Origin: Escherichia phage DCP2
Strand: one strand, 5' to 3'
Sequence record: OR780565.1
Length of the DNA: 64,000 bases
Positions 40,333-42,223 of the stretch are shown one piece after another; position 1 is the first letter of the stretch, and every line of letters starts with the position of its first letter. A program made the position numbers and the translations under genes. Below the pieces are notes generated by a model, which did not search any database, was not told the origin of the DNA, and saw nothing but the letters and a program-made list of their open reading frames with translations.

Positions 40333-41361
40333 ATGTCATCAATACCTTGGATTGATAATGAGTTTGCATATCGTGCGCTAGCTCATTTACCTAAATTCAC
40401 ACAAGTAAATAATAGTTCAACTTTTAAATTACGGTTTAGATGCCCTGTTTGTGGAGATTCAAAAACCGACCAAAATAAAGCTCGTGGATGGTATTATGGC
40501 GATAATAATGAAGGAAATATTCATTGCTATAACTGTAACTATCATGCACCAATCGGAATATATTTAAAGGAGTTTGAACCTGATTTATATCGTGAGTATA
40601 TCTTTGAAATAAGAAAAGAAAAAGGTAAAAGTCGTCCAGTAGAAAAACCTAAAGAACTTCCTAAACAACCCGAGAAGAAAATAATTAAATCTCTTCCGTC
40701 ATGCATTAGATTAGATAAACTGACGGAAGACCATCCAATTATAAAATACGTAAAAGCTCGTTGTATTCCAAAGGATAAATGGAAATATCTTTGGTTTACA
40801 ACCGAATGGCCTAAATTAGTTAATAGTATAGCACCAGGAACATATAAAAAGGAAATACCTGAGCCTCGTCTTGTTATTCCAATTTATAATGCTAATGGAA
40901 AAGCTGAGTCTTTTCAAGGACGTGCATTAAAGAAAGATGCTCCTCAAAAATATATCACCATCAAAGCTTATCCTGAGGCAACAAAAATCTATGGTGTTGA
41001 ACGAGTTAAAGATGGTGATGTATATGTTCTAGAAGGACCTATAGATTCACTTTTTATTGAAAATGGTATAGCTATTACGGGTGGTCAATTAGACCTAGAA
41101 ATTGTTCCATTTAAAGATAGACGTGTATGGGTTTTAGATAATGAACCTCGTCACCCTGATACTATTAAACGAATGACTAAATTAGTTGATGCAGGAGAAA
41201 GGGTTATGTTTTGGGATAAATCTCCCTGGAAATCAAAAGATGTTAATGATATGATTAGAAAGGAAGGTGCAACCCCTGAACAAATTATGGAATATATGAA
41301 AAATAATATTGCCCAAGGGTTGATGGCTAAAATGCGGCTATCTAAATATGCTAAGATTTAA
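40333..41361 (+). CDS. 61: DNA primase gp61
   Basis: 342 aa; N-terminal zinc ribbon CPVCGDS...CYNCNYH and Toprim EGPIDSLF. Confidence 0.95.
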   Translation: MSSIPWIDNEFAYRALAHLPKFTQVNNSSTFKLRFRCPVCGDSKTDQNKARGWYYGDNNEGNIHCYNCNYHAPIGIYLKEFEPDLYREYIFEIRKEKGKSRPVEKPKELPKQPEKKIIKSLPSCIRLDKLTEDHPIIKYVKARCIPKDKWKYLWFTTEWPKLVNSIAPGTYKKEIPEPRLVIPIYNANGKAESFQGRALKKDAPQKYITIKAYPEATKIYGVERVKDGDVYVLEGPIDSLFIENGIAITGGQLDLEIVPFKDRRVWVLDNEPRHPDTIKRMTKLVDAGERVMFWDKSPWKSKDVNDMIRKEGATPEQIMEYMKNNIAQGLMAKMRLSKYAKI

Positions 41362-41558
41362 ATTAATCCAACTAAAGCAAATGCTAAATCTACGAATGTA
41401 TCGAGAGTAATTACTGGAATACTAACGCCATGAGCAATAGCAATTGGCGATAAAATAAAGTTCCATAGTAAAATTCCTATCATAGCAGAAATAGTAAAAG
41501 CTATACGTTTTTTATTACCTTTTATGGCATTAACAAGTGCCATTAATTTTTGTACCAT
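41358..41558 (-). CDS. Small membrane protein, 66 aa, on the opposite strand
   Basis: Minus-strand ORF with a strong SD (AAAGGAGG 7 nt before ATG); two hydrophobic segments; its stop overlaps the gene 61 stop. Confidence 0.5.
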   Translation of the reverse strand: MVQKLMALVNAIKGNKKRIAFTISAMIGILLWNFILSPIAIAHGVSIPVITLDTFVDLAFALVGLI

Positions 41559-41607
41559 GCGTCGTCCTCCTTTAAATTAAATATTTATCGCAAATTTTAC
41601 AAAATTT

Positions 41608-41641
41608 GTTTACTTTCTCAGCTTGCTGTGGTATTATAAAA
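41608..41641 (+). promoter_or_regulatory. T4-type early promoter
   Basis: GTTTAC then gctgtggtattataaa; arms ctcagc / gctgag flank the -10, the second overlapping the SD. Confidence 0.65.
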
Positions 41642-41662
41642 TAAACTGCTGAGGATAATATA

Positions 41663-42223
41663 ATGATTAATAAAATTGTACATGAAATGGCTTTAAACGG
41701 AGATTCATATAAAATATCTGCCGTAGTTGAAAATTTCATACTTAATAAAGTAAAAGAATATTTCACTGATTGTTCAGTTAGTTATCAAGAAAAAATGGTT
41801 TTAATCGACGATACTGAAAAATCAAATAATTTGTTTTGTTCGAATTTTACAACTAAGAAGCGTACTAGAAGATTTGATATTGTCATTTCTCGCAATGGTA
41901 AAAAGCATATAATTGAAATCAAACACCAAGTTGGTGGAGGTACAGCCATTGATTCGGTTGGAATATATCTGGAAGATAAAGATAAATTAAAAGAATACAC
42001 AAAAACTGAAAATCCTGTGTCATTGATGATATTAGATTTTTTGCCATGCGGATATTATCCGCGTAATAAGTGGACAAAAAGAGAATCATTTACTGATAAT
42101 CCAACCATCCAAGCAAGGTTTAATGAATATGCTAAATCACAAAACGTGTTAGTATTACTATCAAATACATATGATGAAGAATTATATAATTCGTTTTTTG
42201 CTGCAATAAATGAGAGAATATAA
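41663..42223 (+). CDS. Hypothetical protein with PD-(D/E)xK-like signature, 186 aa, translationally coupled to dam
   Basis: SD gagga; [18 protein letters not shown] (D72, E85-x-K87) resembles a PD-(D/E)xK core; TAATG stop/start overlap with dam. Confidence 0.6.

Follow-up and report, generated by a model that had tools for sequence, protein, structure and literature searches.

A mobile cassette of T4-like phages pairs dam with a PD-(D/E)xK nuclease-like gene and probably acts as a type II restriction-modification-like system

The 64,000-nucleotide (nt) stretch of DNA from Escherichia phage DCP2 analysed here (record OR780565.1; its full length is referred to as the window) encodes a 186-amino acid (aa) protein immediately upstream of dam, the gene for an adenine methyltransferase of GATC sites. 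We conclude with moderate confidence that the 186-aa gene and dam together form a mobile two-gene, type II restriction-modification (R-M)-like cassette of T4-like (Straboviridae) phages, which would cut unmarked DNA. The modelled 186-aa protein has the fold of PD-(D/E)xK nucleases and its active-site residues are conserved; its gene is under purifying selection, is tightly and exclusively linked to dam, has moved together with dam as a cassette, and has been lost repeatedly from genomes that retained the methylase gene. An earlier note on this locus, made from the sequence alone, had described the 186-aa protein as nuclease-like and as coupled to Dam, possibly in an R-M-like arrangement, and both proposals were supported. 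The same note had joined the two genes to an opposite-strand gene for a 66-aa hydrophobic peptide, an association that was not upheld.

The cassette, whose outer boundaries are approximate to within a few bases, comprises the following features:

41574..43000, plus strand: the cassette of early promoter, nuclease-like gene and dam, of approximately 1.43 kb, seen as a clean indel in Tequatrovirus SH7
41608..41637, plus strand: early-type promoter of the nuclease-dam operon, identified by consensus match (GTTTAC/TTTACT, a 17-nt spacer and TG-n-TATTAT)
41663..42223, plus strand: 186-aa PD-(D/E)xK restriction-endonuclease-like gene (PHROG 8706, no function assigned)
42223..43002, plus strand: dam, encoding a 259-aa D12-class N6-adenine DNA methyltransferase (Pfam MethyltransfD12, E 1e-50; DPPY motif)

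In a promoter scan the early promoter matched at 9 of 12 positions and had an extended -10 TG, and the homologous site is annotated as a promoter in phage Lutter. A GAGGA motif (41651-41655) sits 7 nt before the ATG of the 186-aa open reading frame (ORF), and the stop codon of this ORF shares one nucleotide with the dam start (TAATG). Dam is the orthologue of the T2 and T4 enzymes, its 259-aa ORF being near-identical to that of T4, for which the T4 record states GATC specificity. When the sequence statements of the earlier note were checked against the letters, all of them (both ORFs, their coordinates and ribosome-binding sites, the promoter and the TAATG overlap) proved correct.

The case for a nuclease had been built on a D...ExK segment, which was found in its described place at residues 71-88 of the 186-aa protein. 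An AlphaFold model built with eight homologues (predicted local distance difference test (pLDDT) 81; predicted template modelling score 0.79) displayed an alpha-beta-beta-beta-alpha-beta core, as in the PD-(D/E)xK superfamily, and a Foldseek search of the PDB returned PD-(D/E)xK nucleases exclusively. The closest structure was MunI, at 11% sequence identity, and further matches were to Can2/Card1-type nuclease domains, BstEII, BsaWI, BsoBI, NgoMIV, PfoI, PspGI, AgeI, Bse634I and SgrAI. Enzymes of the BstEII-to-SgrAI type leave 5' overhangs of 4-5 nt, as do GATC cutters of the DpnII/MboI type. A fold search of BFVD retrieved one 63%-identical homologue from phage MX01 together with generic PD-(D/E)xK matches.

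Four residues, E23, D72, E85 and K87, were invariant in nine family sequences with identities down to 32%, as were H88, Q89, the G93-T-A-I-D-S98 segment and D125, and the conservation thus included the D...ExK arrangement itself. Judging from the strand register of the model, D72 and E85 appear to oppose one another across the beta2-beta3 hairpin, and E23, D72, E85 and K87 are the putative catalytic residues. We regard a restriction-endonuclease fold of the PD-(D/E)xK type, with its active site preserved, as established for the 186-aa protein.

Sequence searches gave fainter signals. Neither phmmer nor a profile search against PDB sequences produced a meaningful match for the 186-aa protein, NCBIfam held no significant match for either this or the 66-aa protein, and Pfam returned sub-threshold matches only, to DpnII, BanI and HSDR_N. 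The match to DpnII (PF04556; E 0.005, 16.7 bits against a gathering score of 23) placed residues 29-111 on positions 153-233 of the 278-position profile, and matches to this profile recurred in five of the nine family members at E<=0.1, the best at 8.3e-5. A PADLOC model for type II restriction endonucleases (REase_II, PDLC03548) was matched by the window protein at E 7e-5 and by four of the nine members (best 5.3e-6); as its aligned profile positions nearly coincide with those of DpnII, this model was assumed to be DpnII-like. Membership of the DpnII family was not supported, in that the score lies below the gathering threshold and a protein of 186 aa aligned at core positions only does not have the full-length architecture. 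The record of phage Shinka notes a 'putative DpnII restriction endonuclease', and all other records list a 'hypothetical protein'.

Both the 186-aa and the 66-aa ORFs were found to be under selection for their protein sequence. The ratio of nonsynonymous to synonymous substitution rates (dN/dS; Nei-Gojobori) among Tequatroviruses was 0.04-0.08 for the former, with 16 synonymous and 3 nonsynonymous differences (Sd and Nd) between the window and Lutter, and 0.10-0.15 for the latter. Even in relatives that have reached saturation at synonymous sites, both ORFs are retained at unchanged length and position, and this persistence, together with the dN/dS values, indicates that both are real genes.

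The family of the 186-aa protein is tiny. A profile search of 1.84 billion representative proteins yielded 12 matches, with nothing beyond the family and its fragments except three weak partial matches and with no member of the DpnII family; a profile search of a set of 5.8 billion clusters at E<=10 added no new member. On the available sequences, we rate it as a candidate family of compact restriction endonucleases that is confined to phages and partnered with a well-known methylase.

Every member with a readable context lies directly upstream of a D12-class methylase gene, at spacings from a 13-nt gap to a 35-nt overlap. The gap of 13 nt is found in T2; in the loci L003 to L008 the two genes are adjacent or have one base in common, and overlaps of 35, 20 and 7 nt occur in L009, L010 and Jiaodavirus KPV15, respectively. 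In Lutter and Shinka too, the nuclease gene immediately precedes a D12 methylase gene. The methylases diverge along with the nucleases, the most distant members having nucleases of 32% identity and methylases 53-55% identical to the window Dam.

The pair occupies three different genomic contexts. It is flanked by the primase gene (61) and gene 56 in the window and related phages, follows rIIB and a DenB-like gene in KPV15, and is immediately upstream of rIIA in the L010 phage; at the latter two positions the 66-aa peptide gene does not accompany it. The junction in SH7, 'tcctcctta|ttgctttatatatt', corresponds to 41566-41573 of the window on its left and to approximately 43001-43014 on its right. 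Since the promoter, the nuclease gene and dam are cleanly missing from SH7, the two-gene cassette is both the functional and the evolutionary unit. No flanking direct or inverted repeats beyond chance level were detected at the cassette ends. In a metagenomic relative (L003, 4010-4291) the 66-aa ORF and the nuclease gene are separated by an additional ORF of 93 aa, weakly similar to MazG (E 0.0017), which marks the junction between gene 61 and the nuclease gene as a site of gene turnover.

The distribution of the cassette was surveyed in a phage collection. The window is Tequatrovirus (T4-like) DNA, its positions 41100-42500 being 99.7% identical to phages vB_EcoM_P8, BMB16 and G28, and its 66-aa and 186-aa proteins are identical to YP_010069596.1 and YP_010069597.1 of vB_EcoM-G28. 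Approximately 500 Tequatrovirus records match the flanks of the locus, and most records of the genus have neither the nuclease gene nor dam. A contiguous nuclease gene and dam were found in 148 records, and a Dam of 90% or higher identity to that of the window in approximately 181. In approximately 35 records dam is accompanied by a stump of the T4 type, with no match before query position 437, the T4 breakpoint, and 42 records share the exact T4 junction. There were no records with the nuclease gene but without dam.

At least four independent lesions of the nuclease gene with dam intact were identified, in T4, KarlGJung, G4500/G29 and T2. The earlier note had left open whether T4 has orthologues at this junction. 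In T4 the 66-aa ORF is intact within an unannotated 309-bp gap between dam and 61, where the nuclease gene is reduced to its 3'-terminal ~80 bp, a stump of 20 codons; a deletion fused 'tcgcaaa' to 'tcacaaa' and removed the early promoter and approximately 160 codons. KarlGJung (L029, 791-976) has lost codons 1-121, such that the Shine-Dalgarno sequence is fused to M122, and in G4500 (L030, 264-823) and G29 the nuclease gene is frameshifted by the loss of one nucleotide from an A-run. In T2 (L018, 1501-2046) a frameshift in a T-run replaces the last seven residues; as the T2 copy and the T4 stump both end in ...NSFLLQ, this frameshift seems older than the T4 deletion. The methylase survives alone and the nuclease never does, which is the classical signature of a restriction-modification pair.

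By its logic the closest known system is R-M of the DpnII/MboI type, in which a PD-(D/E)xK endonuclease gene likewise stands beside a D12 GATC adenine methylase gene, and with which the weak core similarity recurs. The endonucleases of those systems are of approximately 280-290 aa, however, against 186 aa here, and only profile positions ~150-233 align, below threshold. Unlike in those systems, the order here is restriction gene then modification gene, in a single operon of a virulent phage, and GATC is a putative specificity of the present protein. MunI, the closest structure at 11% sequence identity, and EcoRI have recognition sites with an AATT core, and their partner methylases are of other kinds.

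The nearest precedent for a GATC R-M pair carried by a virulent virus is R.CviAI/M.CviAI of PBCV-1, a lytic virus with an early GATC N6-methyladenine (m6A) methylase in a viral R-M system (PMC7248222, Table 1). PBCV-1 differs in being a virus of a eukaryotic alga, and no similarity to its endonuclease was detected in the BFVD fold search. Its DNA is also not known to contain hydroxymethylcytosine (hmC).

The orphan Dams of T4, Slopekvirus and Krischvirus belong to the same methylase family (46-99% identity). At least that of T4 derives from the cassette, since the T4 dam gene carries a 3' remnant of the nuclease gene beside it. The orphan dam genes of Slopekvirus and Krischvirus are located elsewhere, and in KP27 and JSE, where dam is at another locus, the ORFs upstream of it were considered as diverged nucleases and found to be unrelated (hhalign probability <1%). 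The endonucleases DenA (endonuclease II) and DenB (endonuclease IV) of T4 are likewise early phage nucleases acting on DNA that lacks the phage modification, and KPV15 has a DenB-like gene two genes upstream of the cassette. They differ in belonging to other folds or families (DenA is a GIY-YIG enzyme), in that self-protection is by hmC and not by adenine methylation, and in having no paired methylase.

From these observations we infer nuclease activity, GATC specificity, sensitivity to m6A and a biological target, in the following scheme. The early promoter would drive a bicistronic nuclease-dam message, from which the nuclease would be translated first and Dam by translational coupling. The 186-aa protein would be a type IIP-like PD-(D/E)xK endonuclease of the MunI/EcoRI-like structural class and the restriction component cognate to Dam; enzymes of that class are mostly homodimers producing 5' overhangs of 4-5 nt. 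Its site would be GATC or a superset of GATC, and methylation by Dam (G-m6A-TC) would shield the phage's own DNA. The nuclease may then attack unmarked DNA in the infected cell, including under-methylated co-infecting phages, mobile elements and Dam-negative host DNA.

Several points weigh against this scheme. The usual enterobacterial hosts are Dam-positive, which would leave few host targets for a methylation-sensitive GATC enzyme. The DpnII matches are below the gathering score and confined to the catalytic core, and because the profile search recovered no DpnII member, the main ground for proposing GATC specificity is the partnership with Dam. Among plasmid-borne methylases, those nearest to this Dam (35-41% identity) serve AlwI-family/FokI-like type IIS R-M systems and not DpnII systems. 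These originate from the Firmicutes genera Lactococcus, Enterococcus, Staphylococcus, Weissella and Lactiplantibacillus (L020-L023, L026 and L027), and Dam homologues of enterobacterial plasmids showed only ~26-31% identity, in alignments covering about two-thirds of the protein length. In Campylobacter, a 182-aa ORF preceding a dam homologue was rejected as a relative of the nuclease (hhalign probability 4%). The absence of nuclease-only genomes derives from only about six independent lineages, and the nuclease gene is dispensable, T4 and several isolates being without a working copy. No publication was found on the nuclease ORF, on 'dam.1' (a name given to the 66-aa gene) or on a T-even restriction endonuclease, and the proposed mechanism is read from sequence and structural models. 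Finally, the glucosyl-hmC of T-even DNA is in itself sufficient to stop 94% of type II enzymes in tests (PMC7653180), so that Dam may be unneeded for self-protection.

The last of these points also speaks for a rival that we consider unlikely, namely that the nuclease acts on host or foreign cytosine-containing DNA whatever its adenine methylation, that hmC protects the phage, as with T4 endonucleases II and IV, and that the adjacency to dam is a relic of an ancestral R-M cassette without present function. The fold and active site are the same in either case, the early promoter is as expected for nucleases of host shut-off, and Dam-positive hosts leave a methylation-sensitive enzyme few targets. 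Modified cytosine, moreover, already makes T-even DNA resist most type II enzymes (PMC7653180). Such a nuclease should nonetheless be encountered in nuclease-only genomes, of which none were seen, whilst methylase-only genomes arose several times, and neither three relocations nor divergence to 32% identity has broken up the adjacent or overlapping arrangement of the pair.

A further reading, speculative and in our estimation rather unlikely, retains the dependence on Dam and makes the cassette both a weapon and a selfish element between T-even phages, with unmethylated GATC being cut even in hmC DNA. GATC was the most depleted 4-bp palindrome of the window (1-64000), with 67 sites where base composition predicts ~200 and a Markov estimate ~210 (observed/expected 0.33), and GTAC, CTAG and TCGA were far less depleted on the Markov estimate. 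Avoidance of GATC is known for enterobacteriophages. If the weapon reading were true, the nuclease would cleave the DNA of dam-less relatives (SH7-type Tequatroviruses, Mosigvirus and Gaprivervirus) in mixed infection, the markers of rivals would be excluded or the rivals converted to carriers of the cassette, and both the presence of Dam in T-even phages and the strong depletion of GATC would be explained.

We judged it improbable that the 186-aa protein is a homing-type selfish endonuclease, which in the manner of the Seg and Mob proteins would cut the cassette-free 61/56 junction, or cassette-free genomes, in mixed infection, and so spread itself and dam. The structures that it matches best are those of classical type IIP enzymes and not of homing enzymes, and no Pfam match to a GIY-YIG or HNH catalytic domain of the Seg/Mob type was obtained for it, the fold being PD-(D/E)xK. 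The known homing enzymes of the T4 family are GIY-YIG or HNH proteins which travel alone, without a methylase. Homing also leaves the constant pairing with a methylase unexplained, and the cassette ends bear no repeat or target-site signature.

Little credence was given to the possibility that the protein is an inactive or non-cleaving DNA-binding partner of Dam which retains the restriction-enzyme fold, whether as a subunit for specificity or regulation or by reading the methylation state of GATC. Inactive derivatives of PD-(D/E)xK enzymes are known, coupled translation points to production of the two proteins in matched amounts, and the gene is dispensable in T4. Against this, the E...D...ExK constellation is invariant across the family, which would be unexpected had catalysis been lost, and repeated loss with dam intact fits a costly nuclease better than a helper; T4 Dam, moreover, works without the nuclease, T4 having only the stump.

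The preferred reading, that of an R-M-like cassette, bears on an old question. The Dams of T2 and T4 are textbook enzymes, yet to our knowledge the presence of a GATC methylase in hmC-protected T-even phages has never been satisfactorily explained. The locus suggests that T-even dam is the modification half of a mobile R-M-like cassette, the restriction half of which is retained by T2 and by most dam-carrying natural isolates. In T4 the restriction half would have been lost through the deletion that left the ~80-bp stump and removed the early promoter of the operon. Should the nuclease be active, it would constitute a type II-like restriction enzyme on a virulent T-even phage, of which there was no report in the literature searched. 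It would also be a candidate weapon in competition between phages, and would represent a new family of compact, 186-aa enzymes without a Pfam model.

The left flank of the cassette, where the genes run in the order sp, 61.1, 61 (primase), the 66-aa ORF on the minus strand, the 186-aa ORF, dam and 56, contains the following features:

40333..41361, plus strand: gene 61, DNA primase, a 342-aa ORF near-identical to that of T4 gp61 and named DNA primase in all related records
41358..41558, minus strand: gene for the 66-aa small hydrophobic protein (PHROG 2024, E 1.2e-30, no function assigned)
41524..41553, plus strand: terminator-like hairpin, ATGGCATT-AACA-AGTGCCAT followed by TAATTTTTGT, from a terminator scan
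41566..41573, minus strand: Shine-Dalgarno sequence AAAGGAGG of the 66-aa ORF, 7 nt before the ATG, read from the sequence
41582..41589, minus strand: late-promoter-like GATAAATA, a 7/8 match to the T4 late box TATAAATA, 24-31 nt before the 66-aa ATG

Gene 61 is the left neighbour of the 66-aa ORF and convergent with it, the two overlapping at 41358-41361 with their stop codons. The 66-aa gene had been regarded as the sole well-supported minus-strand gene of the window, and a whole-window scan indeed found no second minus-strand ORF of at least 50 aa with a Shine-Dalgarno sequence outside the plus-strand ORFs. Homologues were retrieved by tblastn from 695 phage records at identities down to 39%, and the gene has been named 'dam.1' (RB59 record), RB32ORF030w and VR7ORF033w. 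It is invariably convergent with the 3' end of the primase gene, also in genera without dam, and it is present where both dam and the nuclease gene are absent in Mosigvirus APCEc01, Gaprivervirus VR7, Kanagawavirus ZX14 and Tequatrovirus SH7. Its retention in genera without the cassette indicates that it is independent of the nuclease-dam cassette. In T4 (NC_000866; L002, 3239-3439) the intact ORF lies at ~17738-17938, with five conservative substitutions relative to the window, and is unannotated in RefSeq; the T4 reference annotation thus misses a conserved gene for a 66-aa predicted membrane protein (dam.1) with a conserved late-promoter motif.

The AlphaFold model of the 66-aa protein (pLDDT 76) has helices at residues 2-12, 16-42 and 52-62. 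An N-terminal amphipathic helix and a basic cluster (13-18) are followed by a hydrophobic stretch of 48 residues (19-66), interrupted only by P38, G44 and P48, and the conserved residues are W32-N33, P38, G44, P48 and D/E53. The 'two-helix' description given previously is therefore plausible and stops short of proof, the hydrophobic region being continuous and the model containing three helices. No Pfam or PADLOC match and no significant NCBIfam match was obtained for this protein; the name 'Holin' occurs in a single UniRef entry, and there is no lysis gene nearby. Its sequence suggests a small inner-membrane protein, the product of a separate conserved gene tied to the primase 3' end, and as a low-confidence guess it may have a membrane or lysis-associated accessory role.

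A GGAGG or GGAG motif precedes the ATG in all ten divergent orthologues compared. Nine of them also have ATAAATA, the core of the T4 late promoter TATAAATA, 23-30 nt before the ATG, within flanks that cannot be aligned. A perfect TATAAATA is present upstream of the orthologues in ZX14 and L003, and the octamer GATAAATA is annotated as a promoter in phage Lutter; perfect copies of TATAAATA are scarce in the window, with 3 matches against ~10 expected. By these motifs, the 66-aa gene is probably transcribed late, from the minus strand, at a gp55-type promoter. In the window the late-promoter-like motif falls within the left end of the cassette, and in SH7 it is located within sequence that matches the upstream region of gene 56.

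That the peptide, the nuclease and Dam form a single three-part module, toxin-like or anti-restriction, as the earlier note had entertained, is scarcely credible: the genes are adjacent and divergently arranged in the window, but the peptide gene stands beside the primase gene in four lineages without the other two, the nuclease-dam pair occurs elsewhere without the peptide gene, the promoter types differ (late-like versus early), and no evidence was found for a toxin-like or anti-restriction role, neither protein matching the corresponding PADLOC models nor, significantly, NCBIfam.

The terminator-like hairpin falls within codons 5-12 of the 66-aa ORF, and this hairpin and its T-run are hence embedded in coding sequence of the opposite strand, the same bases appearing to serve two roles. 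It was present in both the minimum free energy and the centroid folds, and Yersinia phage fPS-2 annotates a terminator at the equivalent place. The 260-nt region downstream of the primase gene folded overall no better than shuffled sequence (z -0.49), with the local hairpin alone standing out, and an Rfam scan of 40900-43200 at E<=1 returned no RNA family. The hairpin would terminate plus-strand transcripts leaving gene 61. Conservation of the 66-aa region as a mere 3' untranslated region or terminator was excluded, in that the ORF, its length, its Shine-Dalgarno sequence and a low dN/dS persist at nucleotide saturation.

Two further observations concern other parts of the window. After the dam stop codon and upstream of gene 56, at 43002-43028 on the plus strand, TTGCTTA is followed 12-13 nt on by GATATAAT, an arrangement also kept in SH7, which we take to resemble a MotA-dependent T4 middle promoter. 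The final 1.45 kb (62549-64000) contain several listed minus-strand ORFs but no complete ORF of 60 aa or longer on the plus strand, so that a gene extending past the end of the window, possibly in minus-strand orientation, is likely there.

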